This document shows, in pieces, positions 2,564 to 46,454 of a stretch of DNA of 64,000 bases (the first letter of the stretch is position 1; each line of letters begins with the position of its first letter). A program made the translations under genes and the position numbers. Below the pieces are notes generated by a model. The model ran no database searches and was not told where the DNA came from. It saw only the letters and a list, made by a program, of their open reading frames with translations. The stretch comes from Escherichia phage IrisVonRoten: sequence record MZ501075; one strand, given 5' to 3'.

Positions 2564-5123
2564 CGAGAATCCTTTTCACGTTATCCAGATCTTTACATAC
2601 AGCAATAAACTTATCATCCTTGTACTTGCTGTGGTCTGGATGCTCTTTATCCATCGCAGCTAATTTCTTATACTCGAAATCTGCATCAAGTAGCATTTCT
2701 TTAACGTAACGAGTATATTCGTCATCATCAATACAAGCGATTGATGGGTGCTGTTTCTTCATCTTACCACAAGAATAGTCACGAGAACCTCCAGCTTCAG
2801 AATCTGAATCAATACCAATCGGACAGCCAGGAATACTGATACCACGGTCTTTCTGAATATTACGAATCAGGATTTCATTGTATTGGTCGATCAAATCCTC
2901 ACGAACAATAGCAACTACGGAGTCATGAACCAGCATAACAATCTTCATCTCTTGTTCTAAACCAAGAGAAATGATTTCATTATCTGCATCTACAGCACCT
3001 AAAAGGAGACTATCAGAAGAAGCAGACTGAATGATTGCGTTAAATCCAGAACGAATTTCTTCACCCTGAACGCCACGGTCCTCGGAGTGGATATTATGTA
3101 GACGACGTTTGCGACCAAAGTGACTATAGATAAATCCATGATTCTTGATCTGATCGTGGCACTTATCAATCCAACGCTTAAGCTGTGGGAATTGACTAAA
3201 GTAAGTCTCAATGTACTCTTTAGCATCTGCAACAGTACATTCAACAAACGGTTCACCAGTTTTGGCTGCTTGTTCGAGCAATGCTTCGTTAACAGAATGT
3301 GCTACTTTAGCCGGGCCAGAACCATACAAAATACCAAAGGTAATTGCCTTAGCTGCCTGACGTAGAGCTGGGAACAGCTTCTTAACATCACGAGGTTCAC
3401 ATTGCAATTTAAATACCATGTGGGCGATGTTAGAGTGGAAGTCAGGGTATTTATCAGGTTCATTTCTCATGTTGATAAATACTTGTTGCATATTTCTATC
3501 ACCAGATAGAACAGCAGCATAATAAACTTCCGCAGTTGTTAAGTCCCATGCGATTACACGGTATCCAGGTGGTGCAACTACACAACCCTTAATGATAGAT
3601 TCATCACGGGGTAACTGTTGCAGGTTCAGTTTACCAGAAGAACTCAGACGACCAGAAGTAGTCATGTGTTCGTGGAAACCAGTACGAATGCAACCATCAG
3701 CATCAATGCTCAGAAGAATCTTCTCAACGTAAGTAGAGATCAGCTTAGTCAGCTTACGAATCTCTAGTAGAGTCTTAGCAATTGGATGCTGTGTAGACAA
3801 TTCGTTCAGAGCTTCTGCGTCTGTAGAGTCTGCTCCAGTATCCGTCAATTTACCCGTTGGAGTTAAGCCAACATAATCAAACAGAAGAACACGGAGTTGT
3901 TTAACAGAGTTTGGGTTAAACGCTTCGTTCTGATCTTTCTCTAGCTGAACGACTTCTGGATAAGTATACAGCTTTTCACGAGCTTTATTCAGATTATGGG
4001 TTAACTGGTACTGAGCTTCTTTTAAACGATCAATAGAAATAGGTACACCACGATCCTCAACACGCTGGAGAAATACACAACCAGGCATTAGGACATCATA
4101 ATACAGACTGCAAAGTTTTTCATTCTTCTCAATTTTTGGTAAGAAGAAGTTGTGCAAACGTATGGTGGCATCGGTATCTTTTGCAGCGTAAGGCCACATA
4201 ATATCAAACGGAATTAAATCATAGGTGAAATCTTCTTTCTTGATTTTATGTGCTTTGCAGTAATCATCTTTGAACTTATCTAGTTCAAAGTCATAGTCAC
4301 CCATATCTGTATACTTCATTGCTAGAGATTTCAAGCCATGAGTACCACGACGCTCATCTAGAACATAATGCTGCAACATTGTATCATGGAGTCTGCGTTC
4401 TTTATGTGCTTTATCAAAAGTAAGTCCCAGATGGTACTTATAAAAGTGCATATCAAACTTCAAGTTGTGAAAAACAATAGTGTGGTTTTCACTATCCAGA
4501 ATTTTCTGGAGATAATATACTGCAACCTCTGTGAGACAATCAGAATCGATATATACACCCTGATACTCTTGGTGAGATATAGAAACACCAAGCAGATAAC
4601 CATCTCGACAGTATAGTGCTGAGGTTTCGGAGTCGAATGCGACAGGTCCGATAACCATATTATACACCATCTTGATATATTCTTCTGCCTCATCAGGGTC
4701 AGTAATAGGGCGGTAATCACCAGCTTTTGCAATCTTCTCACGACCATTGATAATATCGTGGATATTCTCTACTGTTGCATCAAAAACTGGTTTCATTTCA
4801 GGTTTAAAGTGTAACTGGGCTGGGCTGATACTCGCAATCCAGTTAGCATATCCATTATACTCTACACGTTTACCGGTATAATCACCAATACCTTTCTTAC
4901 CTGCAAAGTACAAGAAAGGTTCGGCACCTACCAGTATAACAAAATCATAGTCACTCGGGTCAAATGGGTTTTCCGGAGTCCCGATAGTAATATGCTTTTT
5001 GAGCAAACGACCGGACAACTTCTCGTTACACATATGGAATACATCAACTTCCTCGCCGTATAGCTGGAAATGTTTATCATAACGAGTGTTGTTTAGAGCT
5101 TTATCAACTACTGCGATTTTCAA
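2556..5123 (-). CDS. DNA polymerase, family A, with 3'-5' exonuclease domain
   Basis: Exo I motif FDSETSAL, motif B RQAAKAITFGILYG, motif C LVHDS. Confidence 0.9.
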   Translation of the reverse strand: MKIAVVDKALNNTRYDKHFQLYGEEVDVFHMCNEKLSGRLLKKHITIGTPENPFDPSDYDFVILVGAEPFLYFAGKKGIGDYTGKRVEYNGYANWIASISPAQLHFKPEMKPVFDATVENIHDIINGREKIAKAGDYRPITDPDEAEEYIKMVYNMVIGPVAFDSETSALYCRDGYLLGVSISHQEYQGVYIDSDCLTEVAVYYLQKILDSENHTIVFHNLKFDMHFYKYHLGLTFDKAHKERRLHDTMLQHYVLDERRGTHGLKSLAMKYTDMGDYDFELDKFKDDYCKAHKIKKEDFTYDLIPFDIMWPYAAKDTDATIRLHNFFLPKIEKNEKLCSLYYDVLMPGCVFLQRVEDRGVPISIDRLKEAQYQLTHNLNKAREKLYTYPEVVQLEKDQNEAFNPNSVKQLRVLLFDYVGLTPTGKLTDTGADSTDAEALNELSTQHPIAKTLLEIRKLTKLISTYVEKILLSIDADGCIRTGFHEHMTTSGRLSSSGKLNLQQLPRDESIIKGCVVAPPGYRVIAWDLTTAEVYYAAVLSGDRNMQQVFINMRNEPDKYPDFHSNIAHMVFKLQCEPRDVKKLFPALRQAAKAITFGILYGSGPAKVAHSVNEALLEQAAKTGEPFVECTVADAKEYIETYFSQFPQLKRWIDKCHDQIKNHGFIYSHFGRKRRLHNIHSEDRGVQGEEIRSGFNAIIQSASSDSLLLGAVDADNEIISLGLEQEMKIVMLVHDSVVAIVREDLIDQYNEILIRNIQKDRGISIPGCPIGIDSDSEAGGSRDYSCGKMKKQHPSIACIDDDEYTRYVKEMLLDADFEYKKLAAMDKEHPDHSKYKDDKFIAVCKDLDNVKRILGA

Positions 5124-17973: not shown

Positions 17974-18480
17974 TTACACCTTAAATTGTTGTAGGGCTTT
18001 ACACATTTCAAGATCTGGACTAAATTCTAACATATAGCTAACAGCTTTTAAATCTTGAAGATTTATTCCAGTTCTACCGTTGACTATAACCGTTGGATAC
18101 TGGTACATCATAGCACCAGCGTCATCCAGCACACACCAATGTTTGAGCTTATGCTTTTCAACAAAGCGAAGAACAGAATTACCCCTAGATAGCCCACCAC
18201 CAGTAAAATCCGTTGTACCAAGAAAACGATCGATAAGATCTAATCCGGTCATAATCTGAACGTTCTCCATCTCATTCCTAACAGAGAACCATGAAGATAC
18301 CCCAACAATCATTATTGGAGAAGGACTAATAAAGTCCTGAAAAGCCTTGAGAAGCGGTTTAAAAACCCAGTCACTTCCAAAGAAAATCTTTTCATCATCA
18401 GGTGCATGGTGATGGGAGATGCTCGAGTTGAGCACCCCATCAATATCTAGAAAAATAATTGGAGTATTACTTATTTCCAT
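17974..18480 (-). CDS. HAD-superfamily phosphatase
   Basis: N-terminal FLDIDGVL (DxDG motif I). Confidence 0.6.
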   Translation of the reverse strand: MEISNTPIIFLDIDGVLNSSISHHHAPDDEKIFFGSDWVFKPLLKAFQDFISPSPIMIVGVSSWFSVRNEMENVQIMTGLDLIDRFLGTTDFTGGGLSRGNSVLRFVEKHKLKHWCVLDDAGAMMYQYPTVIVNGRTGINLQDLKAVSYMLEFSPDLEMCKALQQFKV

Positions 18481-18649
18481 TTTTGTTCCTTTCTAAGAAC
18501 GTATCATACTCAACTGTATCAACATATATGACACCATAGTCATCGGATTTATAGTCCATTTCCCATAGCTCACATCGATAGCACCAACTACCATCCGCCC
18601 ATACAAATATATCATCGGGATGTGTATATACAGATTTAACTATGGACAT
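18467..18649 (-). CDS. hypothetical small protein
   Basis: 60-aa ORF. Confidence 0.35.
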   Translation of the reverse strand: MSIVKSVYTHPDDIFVWADGSWCYRCELWEMDYKSDDYGVIYVDTVEYDTFLERNKNGNK

Positions 18650-19464
18650 ATCTGTTTCCCCGGCATATAAGGTCTACCCTCTAGATGAGCTTCCACACGA
18701 GCAATAAAACCAGGGTCACTGAAAGCATCTACCGCACCTTTACTCCAGTAAGGAATACCACGATCTTCCAGTTGGTACATATCACTACGAGTCATACCTT
18801 GATAGCCTGGTTCCGCCGCTAAGGCACTATCGTAGTAGTTAACTACCATAAGTTTCGCAGCAGTCCGATTAAGAACAGGGAATAATTCCCAGTAGAAGTT
18901 AATTACTTGGTTAGAGCAACCAACCACCACAATCATATCTTGACTGGTAATACCATCAAAAACATTGTACATCTCAGCGTATGCTGGAGCACACTCCCCA
19001 AAGAAGATTACATTAGGTTTAACCCATTTATAATCATCAGGGTCAATAGAGCTATACCCAACATCAATAACTCGTTTATTACTACTATTGTAGCTATCAG
19101 CTACAACAACCTCTTTTAAATACCCGTGAATGTGCAGAATGTCACTATGTGGAACGCCAGCACGCTCAATAAGGTCATCAACGTTGGTAGTTAAGTTTAC
19201 TACTTGACCCGGATATTTCTTATACCATTCACCAATACGCAGGTGTGCAAGATTGGGCTCAACAGTTTCTAACTCTTCACGACGTTTGTTGTAAAACATG
19301 TGGGTTTTATGATAAAAGTTACCACGAAAGGCATGAATATTACATACCTCTTCTAAGTCATAATCATCCCACAATGCTTTACCACTAGCAGTATCAGTAC
19401 GAAAAGCTCGTACACCACTTTCAACACTCAAACCCGCACCGCTAATAATAATTAATCTACGCAC
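18640..19464 (-). CDS. Sir2-family (sirtuin-like) NAD-dependent protein
   Basis: GAGLSVESGVRAFR, TTNVDDL and IHG motifs match the sirtuin core. Confidence 0.65.
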   Translation of the reverse strand: MRRLIIISGAGLSVESGVRAFRTDTASGKALWDDYDLEEVCNIHAFRGNFYHKTHMFYNKRREELETVEPNLAHLRIGEWYKKYPGQVVNLTTNVDDLIERAGVPHSDILHIHGYLKEVVVADSYNSSNKRVIDVGYSSIDPDDYKWVKPNVIFFGECAPAYAEMYNVFDGITSQDMIVVVGCSNQVINFYWELFPVLNRTAAKLMVVNYYDSALAAEPGYQGMTRSDMYQLEDRGIPYWSKGAVDAFSDPGFIARVEAHLEGRPYMPGKQICP

Positions 19465-27593: not shown

Positions 27594-28432
27594 TGCAACA
27601 ATACTTAAAAATTTTGACAGATGTAATTTTACTAGGTGAACCCCGTAATGACCGTACAGGAACAGGCACAGTTTCAATTTTTGATTCCTATGCTAAGTTT
27701 GACCTACGTGAAGGGTTCCCGGCTGTAACTACTAAACGCCTGGCCTGGAAATCAGTAGTAGGAGAACTTTTATGGTTCTTGTCTGGCTCCACAAATCTTC
27801 ATGATCTACGTGTATTCACATTTGGGCGTGACGAAGGACAGTGGACCATCTGGACTCCAAATTATGAAGACCAAGCTATAAGTATGGGGTATGATAAGGG
27901 TAATCTAGGACCAGTATATGGTAAACAGTGGCGTAACTTTGGTGGGCGAGATCAGATTCTAGAACTTATTGAAGGACTCAAGAATAATCCTCATGGCCGC
28001 AGACATCTAGTTTCTGCGTGGAACGTAGCTGAACTTGATAAAATGGCATTACCACCTTGTCACTACGGCTTCCAGTGTTATGTAAGTAACGATGGATACC
28101 TAGATCTTAAATGGACACAACGCTCTGTGGATTGTTTCCTCGGTTTACCTTTCAATATTGCTAGTTATGCTTTATTAACGCATATATTAGCAAAACTGAC
28201 AGGATTAAAACCTCGTTATCTTATCTTTAGTGGCGGTGATACTCATATCTATAATGACCACATGGAACAGGTAGAAGAACAGGTAAAACGCAAGCCACGC
28301 CCTCTACCAACTCTAGTAATGCCAGAGTTTGTAGATCTTTACGATTTATTAGAAAACAATACAGCAGCTTGGTCATTCCATTTAGAGGGGTACGATCCTC
28401 ATCCAGCTCTTAAAGCTAAAATGTCCTCTTAA
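27593..28432 (+). CDS. thyA: thymidylate synthase
   Basis: Active-site PPCHYGFQCYV. Confidence 0.9.
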   Translation: MQQYLKILTDVILLGEPRNDRTGTGTVSIFDSYAKFDLREGFPAVTTKRLAWKSVVGELLWFLSGSTNLHDLRVFTFGRDEGQWTIWTPNYEDQAISMGYDKGNLGPVYGKQWRNFGGRDQILELIEGLKNNPHGRRHLVSAWNVAELDKMALPPCHYGFQCYVSNDGYLDLKWTQRSVDCFLGLPFNIASYALLTHILAKLTGLKPRYLIFSGGDTHIYNDHMEQVEEQVKRKPRPLPTLVMPEFVDLYDLLENNTAAWSFHLEGYDPHPALKAKMSS

Positions 28433-28447
28433 CTTAAATAGCCCTTC

Positions 28448-28475
28448 GGGGCTATTATATTTAAATTTCATTTGC
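28448..28475 (+). terminator. terminator hairpin after thyA
   Basis: ATAGCCC-TTCG-GGGCTAT hairpin followed by T-rich tract. Confidence 0.6.
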
Positions 28476-28500
28476 TTATTTAGTGAAATTTAAATATAAT
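28472..28500 (+). promoter_or_regulatory. T5-type early promoter
   Basis: TTGCTT, 17-bp spacer, TATAAT. Confidence 0.65.
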
Positions 28501-28525
28501 ATATTTTATAAATTGGAGGTATACA

Positions 28526-28807
28526 ATGATTTCAGCCAAAGAAGCCCAAGAACTTGCAGGATTAACAGAAGTACCTGCATTTCTAAAGTTTATAGAAGAA
28601 AAGATTGTAGAAGCTGCTAAGTCTGGAAATACAGAAGTAATTATTCGAGATAATCCTTACGCTAGGTGGCTATATAATCCTAGAGAAATGCCAGGAGCCG
28701 CTAAATCGGTACTAAAAACCTTATCGGATAAGGGGTATCATCTCTCACAATACTACCGAGAAGCCACCTTTGTAGACATGGGTCTTAAAATTAGTTGGGA
28801 GGTATAA
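28526..28807 (+). CDS. hypothetical protein
   Basis: 93-aa ORF after T5-type promoter. Confidence 0.55.
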   Translation: MISAKEAQELAGLTEVPAFLKFIEEKIVEAAKSGNTEVIIRDNPYARWLYNPREMPGAAKSVLKTLSDKGYHLSQYYREATFVDMGLKISWEV

Positions 28808-29283
28808 TGTCGGTTTTCCACATTTATACAGATGGTGCTTGTAAGTCTAACCCAGGTCCAGGCGCTTGGGGTTTTATTGTCTATGATGATAACGACGATC
28901 GTTTAGGTTCTAAATCTGGTTATAACCCTAAAACTACAAATAATGAGATGGAACTCACAGCTATCGTAGAAGCCCTACGTTGGTCTGTTAAAAAAGATAA
29001 TAGACCAATTGCTATCTATACTGACTCTGCTTATTGCAAAAATGGCATGGAAAGTTGGATGTTTTCTTGGCAAAGGAAAGGCTGGAAGAAAGCAGATGGT
29101 GAAGTTCCTCTTAATCTAGAACTTTGGCAGGAAGCATTTAAATTAACACAGCAGTATATCAACTTTCATAATACTAACCCTACTTTTATTAAGGTTAAAG
29201 GACATTCTGGTATTAGTGGTAATGAAGCTGTAGACGCCTTATGTAACACAGTTATTACTGAAGCTGAAATGGCTGAGATGTGA
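28807..29283 (+). CDS. ribonuclease H (RNase HI family)
   Basis: HIYTDGACKSNPGPGAWG motif. Confidence 0.8.
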   Translation: MSVFHIYTDGACKSNPGPGAWGFIVYDDNDDRLGSKSGYNPKTTNNEMELTAIVEALRWSVKKDNRPIAIYTDSAYCKNGMESWMFSWQRKGWKKADGEVPLNLELWQEAFKLTQQYINFHNTNPTFIKVKGHSGISGNEAVDALCNTVITEAEMAEM

Positions 29284-29303
29284 TAAATAAGTTAAAAATC
29301 TTC

Positions 29304-29332
29304 TTGCTTAAAGCCCTCTAATTTAGTATAAT
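29304..29332 (+). promoter_or_regulatory. T5-type early promoter
   Basis: TTGCTT, 17-bp spacer, TATAAT. Confidence 0.65.
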
Positions 29333-29359
29333 ATTCGTATTGAAAGTGAGGAGGGCTTT

Positions 29360-29644
29360 ATGCGAATTTATAACTCAAATTCATTAGGATTTAAACCGTT
29401 GAGAAAACGTGCACAATCACCTCGTCAAATAAGAAAGGCTAATATTGGTGAGCCAGAAACACGTCTTCCACCTCCTCCAGAACAACGTTTAGTTTATCTG
29501 GATGAAGAATTAGCTGAACGCGAAGGAAAAGCTCAAGAAGAGATTGAGCGTAAGAAAATGTGTACTGCTCCAGCCTACTCCAAAGGGGCTTATCAGTATA
29601 TCTATACAGCCGAAGAGGCTAAAGATGCGGGGCGTAAAAAATGA
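29360..29644 (+). CDS. hypothetical protein
   Basis: Strong GTGAGGAGG SD. Confidence 0.55.
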   Translation: MRIYNSNSLGFKPLRKRAQSPRQIRKANIGEPETRLPPPPEQRLVYLDEELAEREGKAQEEIERKKMCTAPAYSKGAYQYIYTAEEAKDAGRKK

Positions 29645-30090
29645 AGATTACTGAATTTAAAGGTGCTTATAGTTTCTTATCTAACTTTTATTTATCACCA
29701 ATTACTTTCGAATATCTAAATGAAATATGGCATGCTGATACTGTAGAACATGCTTTTCAGGCTATGAAATCCGACCAAAAAGATGATGTAGCTCATGTAC
29801 TACGCTCCCTAAATGCAGGAGTTGCTAAACGTAGAGGACGTAAATTAACTCTACGCTCTGACTGGGATAAGGTAAAAGATGATGTAATGCTAGAGCTTTT
29901 ACGGTTAAAGTTTGCAATCCCTGATTTGAGAGATAAACTGTTAGCAACAGAAAATGCAACTTTGATTGAAGGAAATACCTGGGGAGATACATATTGGGGT
30001 GTTTGCCGAGGCATCGGGGATAATACTTTAGGAGTTCTTTTGATGCAGGTAAGGTCTGAAATTAAAAGAAGCTTACAGTTAATAAATTAA
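29641..30090 (+). CDS. NADAR / YbiA-like (DUF1768) protein
   Basis: GAYSFLSNFY...HAFQAMK...NTLGVLLMQVR pattern typical of the YbiA/NADAR family. Confidence 0.65.
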   Translation: MKITEFKGAYSFLSNFYLSPITFEYLNEIWHADTVEHAFQAMKSDQKDDVAHVLRSLNAGVAKRRGRKLTLRSDWDKVKDDVMLELLRLKFAIPDLRDKLLATENATLIEGNTWGDTYWGVCRGIGDNTLGVLLMQVRSEIKRSLQLIN

Positions 30091-30098
30091 AAATTCAT

Positions 30099-30127
30099 TT
30101 GCTAAACGCTTCAAATTCTCGTATAAT
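30099..30127 (+). promoter_or_regulatory. T5-type early promoter
   Basis: TTGCTA, 17-bp spacer, TATAAT. Confidence 0.7.
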
Positions 30128-30165
30128 ATACTTCATAAATTGATAAACAAAAAGGAAAACAAATA

Positions 30166-30681
30166 ATGGCTAAGCAGAAAAACGCAAAAACTCAAGCAGC
30201 TACTACAGTTAAAACTTTCCCGCAGACTGAGGCTAACCGCAAAGCTCGTCTGGAACGCCATCTGCGCAAGCACCCTACTGATGCTCAAGCTGCACAGGCA
30301 CTGAATCGTCCGGCTCCGATTCGTCAAAAGCCGAAGGCTAAGAATGCTACTCGTTCTGTAGCCCGCCTTGTGACCTATGTACAGGGTTATGGCCACAAAT
30401 CTGTTCCAGTAACACTGAGTTTCAATGCTGGAGCTGAATTGTTCTCTCGTAATGGCATGGCCATGAAAGATTATGAGAAAGCAGTTAACCAGAAGCGTAA
30501 ACCAACGGCAGATGTACTGCGTGATACTCGCGGACAGTTCGGTTCTGTTAAACCAAATATCTTTGGTGTAGAATATAGCAAAGATAACGTTCGTGCTCTG
30601 TGTTATGGTGTGGGGATTAAATTCACAGGCGATTCTGCTCGTAAATCTGCTAAACCAGCTCGCAAGCGTAAAGCGAAGTAA
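30166..30681 (+). CDS. highly basic protein, possible nucleic-acid binding
   Basis: Lys/Arg-rich 171-aa ORF with preferred codons; own promoter and GNRA hairpin after stop. Confidence 0.6.
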   Translation: MAKQKNAKTQAATTVKTFPQTEANRKARLERHLRKHPTDAQAAQALNRPAPIRQKPKAKNATRSVARLVTYVQGYGHKSVPVTLSFNAGAELFSRNGMAMKDYEKAVNQKRKPTADVLRDTRGQFGSVKPNIFGVEYSKDNVRALCYGVGIKFTGDSARKSAKPARKRKAK

Positions 30682-30687
30682 TAGATA

Positions 30688-30701
30688 GGGGCGAAAGCCC
30701 C
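30688..30701 (+). repeat. GGGGCGAAAGCCCC GNRA-tetraloop hairpin (copy 1)
   Basis: Same hairpin recurs at 30966-30980 after the next gene. Confidence 0.6.
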
Positions 30702-30740
30702 TACAGTCAACTAATTCTCTAACCAATCCAGGATATTTTT

Positions 30741-30956
30741 ATGTTCTCTAAGAAACCACGTTCCGTTACTGAAATCGTTGCTTCCTTTACTACTATTACT
30801 GATGAACTTCAAGCTCGTATTGAGGCTGATCAGAAAATTGCTGCTGATATTCAGAAACAGCAGGAAGAACTCGCTCTGAAGTTGGCTGAAACCAACAAGA
30901 GCGAAAAATCTGCCCAAACTATTATGGAAAATATCCTTAAACTGCTTGGCAAGTAA
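30741..30956 (+). CDS. hypothetical coiled-coil protein
   Basis: 71-aa ORF. Confidence 0.5.
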   Translation: MFSKKPRSVTEIVASFTTITDELQARIEADQKIAADIQKQQEELALKLAETNKSEKSAQTIMENILKLLGK

Positions 30957-30965
30957 TTTAAATCA

Positions 30966-30986
30966 GGGGGCGAAAGCCCCTCTTAT
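30966..30986 (+). terminator. GGGGGCGAAAGCCCC hairpin + T-rich tract (copy 2)
   Basis: Hairpin followed by TCTTATTT. Confidence 0.6.
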
Positions 30987-30997
30987 TTGGAGAAATT

Positions 30998-31234
30998 ATG
31001 CGTAATTTTGTAGCAAAGAATGATTTTAACCGTGCTAGCACTCATAAGTCCGCTAGAGATTATACACGACTTTCTAGTCATGAGGTAATGGATACCTGTT
31101 ATGAAGAGCTGGAAGGTAGTTGGAATGAATGGCCTGACTTCTCTATGGAAGAGAACTGGGATGTCAGTGAGGATATGCTTCCTGGTTTCAAAGACCCCAA
31201 GAAGTGGGAGTCTATTAAAGAGACAGCTCTTTAA
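30998..31234 (+). CDS. hypothetical acidic protein
   Basis: 78-aa ORF. Confidence 0.5.
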   Translation: MRNFVAKNDFNRASTHKSARDYTRLSSHEVMDTCYEELEGSWNEWPDFSMEENWDVSEDMLPGFKDPKKWESIKETAL

Positions 31235-31262
31235 TAGTTTTCTACACAATAAAGGATAAGTT

Positions 31263-31964
31263 ATGAAAGTAAAACCATTTGGTATGCTAGATATTGAATC
31301 TCTAGGAACTCCAGGAGATTGTGGTACTACTCATATCGCAATGCCTTCTTTCGCTTTTGTGGCTATGCACGGAATTGATAAAGACCCTGATCTAGTGTTT
31401 GTTACTTTGGATGTACAAGATCAGCTTAACTCTGGAGCTAAAGTTACGGCATCTACTCTAGCATTCTGGATGGATCAAGCTAAGAATAGCCCATCAGCTC
31501 TACATATTATGGAAGCTATGAAGGAATGCAATCCAAAGCTGATTGCTTTTCAAGATGGTAAACATCACTGTACTAATAAGCTAGGCTCTAACTATGCAGC
31601 TTATTCTATGGCTAAAAACATTATGGAGTTGGCTCTAGGTGAGAATGCTTTGTATTATGGCAATGGCCCAGAGTTTGATATGACTATCTACTCTGCAAAC
31701 ACTTTCCATGCTGGAACCAATGAAGAAATAGTTCCGTGGAAATTCTGGAACTTAGGCAATGTTCGATCTCTCCGCAATCTCTGGATGCAGGCTGGTTATA
31801 GTTACAAAGACCTAGAAGCAGAGGGAATTAGCTGGGCAAAAGCTAAGATGGAGAAGATGGACACTATTCGTTATGGGATCTATCCGGTTAAGCATGATCC
31901 AGCATTCGATGCCTTAGTTGAGAGCTATTGTGTTGCAGCTATGGTCGAAAAAATCAAAATTTGA
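31263..31964 (+). CDS. DEDDh-family 3'-5' exonuclease (DnaQ-like)
   Basis: Exo I MLDIESLG and Exo III HDPAFDA motifs. Confidence 0.6.
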   Translation: MKVKPFGMLDIESLGTPGDCGTTHIAMPSFAFVAMHGIDKDPDLVFVTLDVQDQLNSGAKVTASTLAFWMDQAKNSPSALHIMEAMKECNPKLIAFQDGKHHCTNKLGSNYAAYSMAKNIMELALGENALYYGNGPEFDMTIYSANTFHAGTNEEIVPWKFWNLGNVRSLRNLWMQAGYSYKDLEAEGISWAKAKMEKMDTIRYGIYPVKHDPAFDALVESYCVAAMVEKIKI

Positions 31965-31965
31965 T

Positions 31966-31994
31966 TTGCTTCCAGCTTCAAAATTCTGTATAAT
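31966..31994 (+). promoter_or_regulatory. T5-type early promoter
   Basis: TTGCTT, 17-bp spacer, TATAAT. Confidence 0.7.
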
Positions 31995-32034
31995 ATACTC
32001 ATAAATTTGAGAAAACAACAAAAGGAAAACAAAT

Positions 32035-37022: not shown

Positions 37023-37439
37023 TTAGGAGTTATTACCACCATTTTGAGCTTTTGCAACTTGGCTTTGGCAGAAGCTATTAAACTTACCCATAAGTGATAC
37101 AAGCTGCTTCCCATCCTCTGTCTTTGCGAAGTCTTCGAAAAGGGCTAGTACTGCTTGTCCTTCCGTAGAAACCTGCGGTTGTTGGGTTTGCTGCTGAACT
37201 TGCTGCTGAGGCACCTGTTGCTGCATTTGTTGAGGCATTTGCGACTGCCCGCTCATTTGCTGCATCATTTGCATAGGACTCACACTTCCAGGGTTTTGCT
37301 GGAAGTGTTGCTGCATCTGTTGCGCTTCTGCTAAACGCTGTTGCAACTGTTGTAGGTAAGGATTATCCAGACCCGGAACGGGCTGCTGGGAGCCCATTGG
37401 TTGATTAAATCCGTTGTTTACAAAACCATATTTACTCAT
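37023..37439 (-). CDS. Gln/Met-rich low-complexity protein
   Basis: ATG after GGGGAGGAG SD; long PQQ/MQQ tract. Confidence 0.6.
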   Translation of the reverse strand: MSKYGFVNNGFNQPMGSQQPVPGLDNPYLQQLQQRLAEAQQMQQHFQQNPGSVSPMQMMQQMSGQSQMPQQMQQQVPQQQVQQQTQQPQVSTEGQAVLALFEDFAKTEDGKQLVSLMGKFNSFCQSQVAKAQNGGNNS

Positions 37440-37460
37440 AATGGGCTCCTCCCCTTAATT

Positions 37461-38441
37461 TTAAGCCGGCAGTTTAGCCTGCAGACCAGCCAGAGTCTGA
37501 GTGATAGCACCAAGACTTACAGCGATTTGATTAATTACCTGACCGTTAGCACCACTACCTGCAGCGATTGCTTCGCGCAGACGGCATTCATTCAGTTCGT
37601 CCTGGATACGTGCAGTAGTTACACCAGCGATTGCAGTCTGAAGCTCACAGCAACATTCAGCAAGCTGACGTTCGATAGCGTTCTGGTTAGCACACATCTG
37701 AGCCTGAACAGCGGCAAACTGGTTGTTGGTCTGAATAGACTGCTGGAAAGCAATCTGAGCAGAGTCAAACTTATCTTGAGCACGTGCGATCTGGTTAGCA
37801 GCGAAAGATTGATCCATCTGACGAGAAAGATCGAATTGACCCTGAATAACGTTACGAGTTTCAGCACAGATCTGGTTTGACAGATTAGCACCTGTACCAT
37901 AGATAGTAGTCAGAACTTGCTGAGTGCTAGCAGCTTGAGCAGCTCCCACACCGTTTACTGCGCTTAGAACAGCCCCAGTGCCCTGGTTAGCTTCTGTACG
38001 AGTAGTATTGATTGCAGCTAGAATACTTGCAGTATCTTGGTTAGAAAGGATCGCGTCCACAGCAGTCCCTTCAGCGGCAACGCCAGCACCACGGCCAAAA
38101 CCACCAAAACCACCAAATCCGCCCGTTAATAGAGCACCGATTAGGATAGCTCCGAATAGACCCATACCTTCTCCACCGAAAGCACTTGCGTTAGCTGGGA
38201 ATGCACCCATGCCAGGGAAGCCGTTAGTAAATACGTTTACTGGTTCTTGCATTTTATGTTTTCCATATTTATGACAATGTTCATCATAGTCATCTTCTTC
38301 ATCTTTATCATCGTGTTCACGATGTTCTTCTTCGTAGGCTTTGACTTTCTCCCACTTTTTCTTATCTGATTCCTCGTGACGGTGCAGTTCTGCTGCTACG
38401 CTAGCGACGGTTTCAGGACTCTTAGCTACTTCTTCTGTCAT
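37461..38441 (-). CDS. glycine-zipper membrane-associated protein with acidic His-rich N-terminus
   Basis: Start at ATG (MTEEVAK) after AGGAGGTG SD; GLFGAILIGALLTGGFGGFGGFG segment; Ala/Gln/Asn-rich C-terminus with CCC. Confidence 0.6.
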   Translation of the reverse strand: MTEEVAKSPETVASVAAELHRHEESDKKKWEKVKAYEEEHREHDDKDEEDDYDEHCHKYGKHKMQEPVNVFTNGFPGMGAFPANASAFGGEGMGLFGAILIGALLTGGFGGFGGFGRGAGVAAEGTAVDAILSNQDTASILAAINTTRTEANQGTGAVLSAVNGVGAAQAASTQQVLTTIYGTGANLSNQICAETRNVIQGQFDLSRQMDQSFAANQIARAQDKFDSAQIAFQQSIQTNNQFAAVQAQMCANQNAIERQLAECCCELQTAIAGVTTARIQDELNECRLREAIAAGSGANGQVINQIAVSLGAITQTLAGLQAKLPA

Positions 38442-38503
38442 TTTTTGACACCTCCTAGTATATAGAAAATGTGTGTCTCTTTGATCACTCATCCATAACA
38501 TAT

Positions 38504-46253: not shown

Positions 46254-46454
46254 ATGGCTGATTTCTGCAAACAATGCTCCATTGATATGTGGGGCAGAGA
46301 TACTGGTGACTTAGCTGGTCTGATTACAGAAGCCGAAGTCAAAGAAGGTTATGGTGCAGTTGTGGTTTGCGAAGGATGCGGAGTCATTCGAGTAGACCAT
46401 GAAGGTAAGCGCCTTGAAGAACCTGAGCCAATCGCAACGGTTCCTGTAGAGTGA
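46254..46454 (+). CDS. small Cys-rich (zinc-ribbon-like) protein
   Basis: CKQC...CEGC pairs. Confidence 0.5.
   Translation: MADFCKQCSIDMWGRDTGDLAGLITEAEVKEGYGAVVVCEGCGVIRVDHEGKRLEEPEPIATVPVE

Follow-up and report, generated by a model that had tools for sequence, protein, structure and literature searches.

The NADAR proteins of Bas32 and Bas33, two phages described as 'Markadamsvirinae closely related to T5', are identical and were named AdfN^Bas32 (Johannesman et al., Nat Commun 2025, PMC11825919); the tree published there places AdfN^Bas32 'near two archaeal NADARs'. [quoted passage not shown] T5 was not helped by AdfN^Bas32 against DarTG2, which modifies thymidine, and the assays in the available text consist of ectopic expression, not of deletion in a T5-like phage (PMC11825919).

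In the NADAR protein of Phytophthora nicotianae (Pn), the residues contacting ADP-ribose are E43, K50, K75, R79, D86, W89, R93, E125, D130, and W133 (Schuller et al., Mol Cell 2023, PMC11543638). DarG1 from E. coli C7 needs E88, K95, and D171 for catalysis, and its residue K115 is required for rescue in cells but dispensable for catalysis in vitro (PMC11543638). The site of the second acid is diagnostic, being occupied by Glu in YbiA-type proteins and by Asp in proteins of the BC4488/DarG1 type (PMC11543638). E. coli YbiA removes ADP-ribose from guanine (G-ADPr) in vitro, yet in cells it gives no rescue from the toxicity of DarT1 (PMC11125620), and anti-DarT1 activity is therefore not predictable from family resemblance alone.

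The DNA analysed here, a stretch of 64,000 nucleotides referred to as the window, comes from a T5-like phage (Demerecviridae, Markadamsvirinae, Tequintavirus) and carries a NADAR gene. We propose that its product is a stand-alone NADAR ADP-ribosylglycohydrolase, orthologous to AdfN^Bas32, that reverses the guanine-ADP-ribosylation placed on phage DNA by DarT1, and we assign a probability of about 0.85 to this reading. The results obtained here concern the gene, its domain and predicted fold, its conserved active site, its near-identity and synteny with a tested protein, and its presence or absence in T5-like phages.

The NADAR gene and its counterpart in Bas33

In the ORF list of the 64-kb window, a 149-aa ORF with an ATG start and a TAA stop is found at 29641..30090 (+). 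The encoded protein matched the Pfam family NADAR (PF08719) with 78.7 bits (E = 8e-22), compared with a gathering cut-off of 35.1 bits, and its residues 9-142 were aligned to positions 9-163 of the 163-position model; the YbiA/NADAR (DUF1768) pattern that the initial annotation had read in this protein was thus borne out over nearly the whole model. Further matches were obtained to phrog_1017 (1.2e-44) and, using HMMER, to E. coli YbiA (PDB 2b3w, 3.7e-15) and to the ADP-ribose-bound Pn NADAR (8bau, 7e-7). The matches to PF08719, phrog_1017, and YbiA are far above chance. PADLOC gave only a weak and uninformative match, to the candidate-system model PDC-M42C at 28 bits, and the profile of the DS-32 NADAR anti-phage protein (NCBIfam NF053876) scored 44.8 bits, below its cut-off of 240.

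The protein was compared with bas33_0070 of Escherichia phage HildyBeyeler (Bas33, MZ501074, the record with 'bas33_' locus tags), and 147 of the 149 residues (98.7%) are the same. Both substitutions, A9T and E104K, lie at non-conserved positions that vary among homologues; the sequence used for the comparison with AdfN^Bas32/33 is that of Bas33. The two proteins also agree in length, in locus, in virus group (Tequintavirus), and in the gene order rnh / T5.090-like / NADAR / DUF7022. Based on this identity and synteny, we conclude that the window gene is the orthologue of a published and functionally tested anti-defence gene. It is listed here as an adfN-type NADAR gene, an assignment that combines the ORF, the Pfam match, the identity to bas33_0070, the AlphaFold2 and Foldseek results, and the invariant catalytic residues. 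The function proposed for the gene at 29641..30090, that of an AdfN-type anti-DarTG1 enzyme, was published in 2025 for the 98.7%-identical protein.

The initial annotation had suggested that the protein could reverse ADP-ribosylation of DNA bases and in this way counter DarT-type defence. Judged by the published tests of AdfN^Bas32, this suggestion is supported for DarT1 and guanine-N2-ADPr but not for DarT2 and thymine. Because thymine ADP-ribosylation by DarT2 is not reversed, the target is narrowed to DarT1 and does not extend to DarT-type defences generally.

GenBank records name the gene 'swarming motility protein YbiA', 'GTP cyclohydrolase II', 'N-glycosidase', 'DUF1768', or 'hypothetical'; it should be called an AdfN-type anti-DarTG1 ADP-ribosylglycohydrolase. 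The label 'antitoxin-like enzyme' exists in one record, that of Salmonella phage WP85. Several records (BB1, SE11) apply the name 'swarming motility protein' to the unrelated DUF7022 neighbour at 30166..30681 (+), and in some the exonuclease-like gene appears as 'metallopeptidase' and small ORFs as 'baseplate wedge subunit' or 'tail tape measure protein'.

Other explanations for the DNA at this locus were also considered. The GC content across the NADAR gene is 0.35-0.40, the same as in its flanks, and a recent foreign insertion is therefore unsupported by composition. Two antisense ORFs of 73 and 55 aa lie inside the gene, with nothing to support either of them, and Rfam gave no match at E <= 0.1 over 28000..32000; a hidden RNA element or antisense feature was rejected on these grounds.

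Locus, boundaries, and distribution among T5-like phages

Salmonella phage MET_P1_179_112, the closest relative, matches the region 28500..31300 at 97.3% identity, and many T5-like phages of Salmonella and Escherichia match it at 95-96%. All genes are on the + strand, in the order nrdA, nrdB, frd, thy, a 93-aa ORF, rnh, a T5.090-like gene (94 aa), the NADAR gene, the DUF7022 gene (171 aa), a 71-aa ORF, a 78-aa ORF, and a gene for an Rv2179c-like exonuclease. The T5 record has the order rnh, promoter, T5.090, promoter P-H207, and T5.089, and the NADAR gene is absent from it. The T5.090-like gene of the window (29360..29644, +), whose function is unassigned, encodes a protein that is 90% identical to T5.090 over 91 aa and matches phrog_4593; a Pfam search with it gave no match. 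Its TGA stop overlaps the ATG of the NADAR gene in the sequence ATGA. Neither of the two neighbours of the NADAR gene, T5.090-like and DUF7022, has an ADP-ribosyltransferase domain or corresponds to DarT, and the gene is an orphan in this respect.

Upstream of the T5.090-like gene, a promoter-like site of the form TTGCTT-17 nt-TATAAT is located at 29303..29335 (+). The corresponding alignment columns (34-66) are identical in the window, T5, and Bas33, and the T5 record has a sigma-70 promoter annotated at the corresponding place upstream of T5.090 (46337..46411). A consensus promoter scan made no call at 29303..29335 because the -35 hexamer matches the consensus at only 3/6 positions. Transcription of the NADAR gene probably starts from this site. 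At 30099..30127 (+), just downstream of the NADAR stop codon, the same scan found a promoter with 10/12 matches, TTGCTA-17 nt-TATAAT, which is identical to T5 P-H207 (annotated as 'promoter P-H 207'). The NADAR indel is bounded on its right-hand side by this promoter, which drives the DUF7022 gene.

The NADAR gene is on the same strand as the nrdA-nrdB-frd-thy-rnh block and directly downstream of it, which is consistent with the early operon named by the initial annotation. It probably shares a transcript with the T5.090-like gene and is probably coupled to it in translation, within a block of replication and nucleotide-metabolism genes that we take to be the early region of T5. By position only, the NADAR gene would then be expressed early. 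The gene classes of T5 are pre-early, early, and late (PMC7472727).

A three-way DNA alignment showed that T5, the window, and Bas33 are near-identical across the promoter and on into the T5.090-like gene, until they diverge over its last ~70 nt, after which the whole NADAR ORF is missing in T5. Identity with T5 resumes exactly at P-H207. This pattern identifies the NADAR gene as a discrete accessory gene. The differences between the T5.090-like protein and T5.090 cluster at the C-terminus, and DNA identity falls from about alignment column 305. The C-terminus reads ...YIYTAEEAKDAGRKK in the window and in Bas33, where the NADAR gene lies behind, and ...YVSDEEQAKMVGR in T5, which has no NADAR gene, and in Salmonella phage vB_SenS_UTK0009, where NADAR lies before the gene. 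The last ~70 nt of the T5.090-like gene, which differ from T5, travel with the NADAR gene.

T5 thus lacks exactly the NADAR ORF, and it served as a DarTG1-sensitive phage that was rescued by the Bas32 protein (PMC11825919); we count this natural contrast in favour of an anti-DarTG1 role. For T5-group phages considered for therapy, whether the 450-bp NADAR gene is present offers a simple way to predict sensitivity to hosts that carry DarTG1.

A tblastn search found NADAR at >=95% identity (that is, at least 95%) in 94 phage records, all T5-like except for a few short mislabelled fragments; the surrounding region was matched by 444 records, so that about 94 of ~450 T5-like records carry the gene, and the T5.090-like gene occurs in 223 records, 93 of which have NADAR behind it, all four counts (94, 444, 223, and 93) being inflated by RefSeq/GenBank duplicates. 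Two records of 2-3.5 kb labelled 'Listeria phage LM 4-14-1 / 4-11-1' (OR848833.1, OR847649.1) hold a 99%-identical copy of the NADAR locus, and their Listeria labels most likely reflect contamination or mislabelled T5-like fragments.

Outside the T5-like phages, the nearest relatives are 50-60% identical and are encoded on phage-like metagenomic contigs of 150-170 kb, among genes for dUTPase, dCMP deaminase, QueH, Thg1, and similar proteins. Within the Markadamsvirinae, UTK0009 (Epseptimavirus) encodes a NADAR protein 60% identical to that of the window (record positions 2989..3438); its gene directly follows rnh and precedes a T5.090 homologue with the T5-type C-terminus. This placement indicates that the interval from rnh to the exonuclease gene is a variable site that has received NADAR more than once, and in the Markadamsvirinae NADAR genes seem to occupy two different points of it. 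The 71-aa ORF at 30741..30956 (+) matches phrog_2380 (function unassigned) and lies between GC-rich terminator-like hairpins (30685..30704 and 30966..30981). It represents another small indel of this interval, shared by the window, BB1, and MET_P1_179_112 and missing from T5 and Bas33.

Further accessory genes were observed elsewhere in the window. At 37023..38501 (-), flanked by a Band_7/SPFH gene and a Toprim-like gene, there are two ORFs of 138 aa (37023..37439) and 346 aa (37461..38501) that are oriented against the + genes around them. They had no Pfam or PADLOC match and matched only phrog_7894 and phrog_8119 (function unassigned). MET_P1_179_112 has nadR and pnuC (+) at this place, and 37023..38501 therefore appears to be an accessory cassette that has been exchanged. 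A Sir2-family gene (18640..19464, -) lies near a HAD_SAK_2 gene ('Swiss Army Knife RNA repair' HAD; 17974..18480, -), whose homologue is named 'Sir2' in the T5 record; the pair (17974..19464) is another NAD-linked module of T5-like phages.

Predicted active site and proposed mechanism

The AlphaFold2 model of the window NADAR, built from an alignment with 48 homologues, has a mean pLDDT of 97.9 and a pTM of 0.91. In a Foldseek search it matched YbiA (2b3w, TMq 0.82) and the Pn NADAR (8bau, TMq 0.75), both with a probability of 1.00, and the protein is predicted to adopt the YbiA-like alpha-helical core fold.

Active-site positions were transferred by HMMER alignments to 8bau, in which the chain index equals the numbering of PMC11543638 + 2. 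In the order given above, the Pn contacts correspond to E36, K43, K63, R67, D74, W75, K79, E110, D116, and W119 of the window protein. E88 and K95 of E. coli C7 DarG1 (EcC7) are equivalent to Pn E43 and K50, and Pn E125 is the second acid; all of these, as well as the ligands of the ADP-ribose phosphates, are present in the window NADAR. The 48 homologues, which are at 46-60% identity, all have E36, K43, E110, D116, and W119, and >=90% (at least 90%) of them also have K63, G66, and W75. The initial annotation had made a NADAR role depend on the conserved catalytic residues, and the published catalytic and ADP-ribose-binding residues (E36, K43, K63, R67, D74, W75, E110, D116, and W119) are all kept.

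For the window protein, we infer the chemistry, the early timing, and the protection of the phage in its natural hosts. The NADAR protein would be made together with the early replication and nucleotide-metabolism genes, as the translationally coupled second gene of a T5.090-like/NADAR unit. It would bind ADP-ribose attached to guanine N2 in (single-stranded) phage DNA and hydrolyse the bond between ribose and base. Replication-blocking lesions introduced by the DarT1 toxins of DarTG1 systems would be cleared from the phage DNA in this way, and the enzyme would act as an 'orphan antitoxin'.

One residue of the predicted site was considered with regard to activity in cells. The position equivalent to EcC7 K115 is a Lys in the window NADAR (K63, in the basic patch 63-KRRGRK-68) and in at least 90% of its homologues, an Ala in YbiA, and a Gln in T4 gp30.3, the last being read from an alignment at 22% identity that is anchored by the conserved A62, G66, and R67 columns. 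From these alignments, we hypothesise that Lys63 tracks with the neutralisation of DarT1 in cells, a correlation over four proteins.

Substrates other than or beyond G-ADPr are possible for the window NADAR. According to one tentative and rather doubtful proposal, activity against DarT1 in cells would hang on the Lys equivalent to K63, and the YbiA-type site would also widen the range relative to the DarG1 and T4 types, to cytidine-ADPr or RNA-ADPr and to defences beyond DarTG1. A related possibility, which would add to the best explanation, is that the protein is a broader de-ADP-ribosylase that also acts on cytidine-ADPr and/or RNA-ADPr, against toxins besides DarT1. In vitro, cytidine-ADPr was taken off DNA and RNA by members of the NADAR/YbiA family but not by DarG1 or the T4 NADAR (PMC12945103), and the window NADAR falls on the YbiA-type side by sequence. 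However, the proteins tested on C-ADPr or RNA in that study do not include the Bas32 type (PMC12945103), and no cytidine-ADP-ribosylating phage-defence system is cited in the NADAR literature examined, so we regard this broader role as improbable.

Comparison with known NADAR proteins

Sequence and profile comparisons place the window NADAR closest to the YbiA type, of which it is a minimal core by sequence. Against the PDB, the family profile scored 137 bits with YbiA and 74.5 bits with the Pn NADAR, and DarG1 was undetected. The window protein has a Glu (E110) at the YbiA-diagnostic position (Pn E125). E. coli YbiA (2b3w), an N-glycosidase of riboflavin intermediates, resembles it in sequence (41% identity), in fold (TMq 0.82), in being a minimal core without extensions, in the catalytic Glu and Lys, and in the diagnostic Glu. 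It differs in having an Ala at the K63 site, and in sitting in a LexA-controlled host operon, whereas the window NADAR is encoded by a phage. The two types also differ in behaviour, as YbiA gives no rescue from DarT1 in cells (PMC11125620), whereas the Bas32-type protein does (PMC11825919).

Could the window NADAR instead be a YbiA-like housekeeping N-glycosidase, acting on reactive riboflavin intermediates or another small-molecule N-glycoside, with the anti-DarT1 effect as a side activity under over-expression? E. coli YbiA is indeed its best solved relative, E110 is the Glu of that type, the profile TIGR02464 (riboflavin biosynthesis intermediates N-glycosidase) gives 66.3 bits, and several GenBank records use 'N-glycosidase' or 'GTP cyclohydrolase II'. 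That score, however, is below the curated cut-off of 73.7, and no riboflavin genes (RibA/RibD) were found fused to or near the single-domain 149-aa protein, whose neighbours are T5.090-like and DUF7022. In addition, the near-identical AdfN^Bas32 rescues DarT1 toxicity in vivo and E. coli YbiA does not, and T5-like phages can do without the gene, which occurs in them patchily, as expected of an accessory counter-defence gene. We therefore consider the housekeeping role very unlikely; as a primary role, that of a riboflavin N-glycosidase (YbiA equivalog) was rejected on the TIGR02464 score, the lack of rib context, and the in vivo behaviour unlike that of YbiA.

Hardly credible is an action on free NAD+ or ADP-ribose small molecules (ADPr-based immune signals or NAD+ salvage) together with other NAD genes of T5-like phages, for although the NADAR family was first named for a link to NAD/ADPr metabolism, and a Sir2-family gene occurs in the window and nadR/pnuC in close relatives, the Sir2/nadR/pnuC genes are at least 10 kb away in other transcription units, nadR/pnuC are absent from the corresponding place in the window, no such activity is reported for any NADAR in the literature examined, and the published AdfN^Bas32 phenotype is DarT1-specific (PMC11825919).

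Read as a stand-alone AdfN-type enzyme against DarT1, the window NADAR shares with DarG1 (E. coli C7; G. lovleyi, PDB 8bat) the superfamily, the substrate guanine-ADPr produced by DarT1, the conserved Glu and Lys, and the Lys that is essential in vivo. In contrast, DarG1 has an N-terminal beta1-beta2-alpha1 extension, whereas in the 149-aa window protein the domain begins near residue 9; its second catalytic acid is an Asp (EcC7 D171) and not a Glu as in the window NADAR (Glu110); and its gene adjoins that of the DarT1 toxin, whereas the window gene is without an ART-like neighbour. No sequence or profile match was found between DarG1 and the window NADAR, and the Foldseek match of the model to G. 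lovleyi DarG1 (8bat) was weak (TMq 0.52, E = 0.73). A DarG1-type antitoxin captured with its toxin was rejected on account of the missing extension, the Glu in place of Asp, the absence of a neighbouring DarT, and the weak structural match.

The other phage-encoded system for comparison is AdfN^T4 (T4 gp30.3, 152 aa, PF08010 Phage_30_3), which like the window NADAR is a phage orphan NADAR directed against DarTG1. T4 gp30.3 has no pairwise similarity to the window NADAR (BLASTP E = 1.2), which does not match PF08010, and a relationship to T4 gp30.3 was rejected as no pairwise similarity was detectable. The T4-type NADARs have a His in place of the conserved Glu, whereas the window NADAR keeps Glu110. 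AdfN^T4 needs the context of a T-even infection and gives no rescue in uninfected cells, whereas the Bas32 type works alone. These differences between AdfN^T4 and the Bas32 type point to independent acquisition, and the lack of similarity to T4 gp30.3 agrees with the published conclusion that phages have acquired NADAR genes several times.
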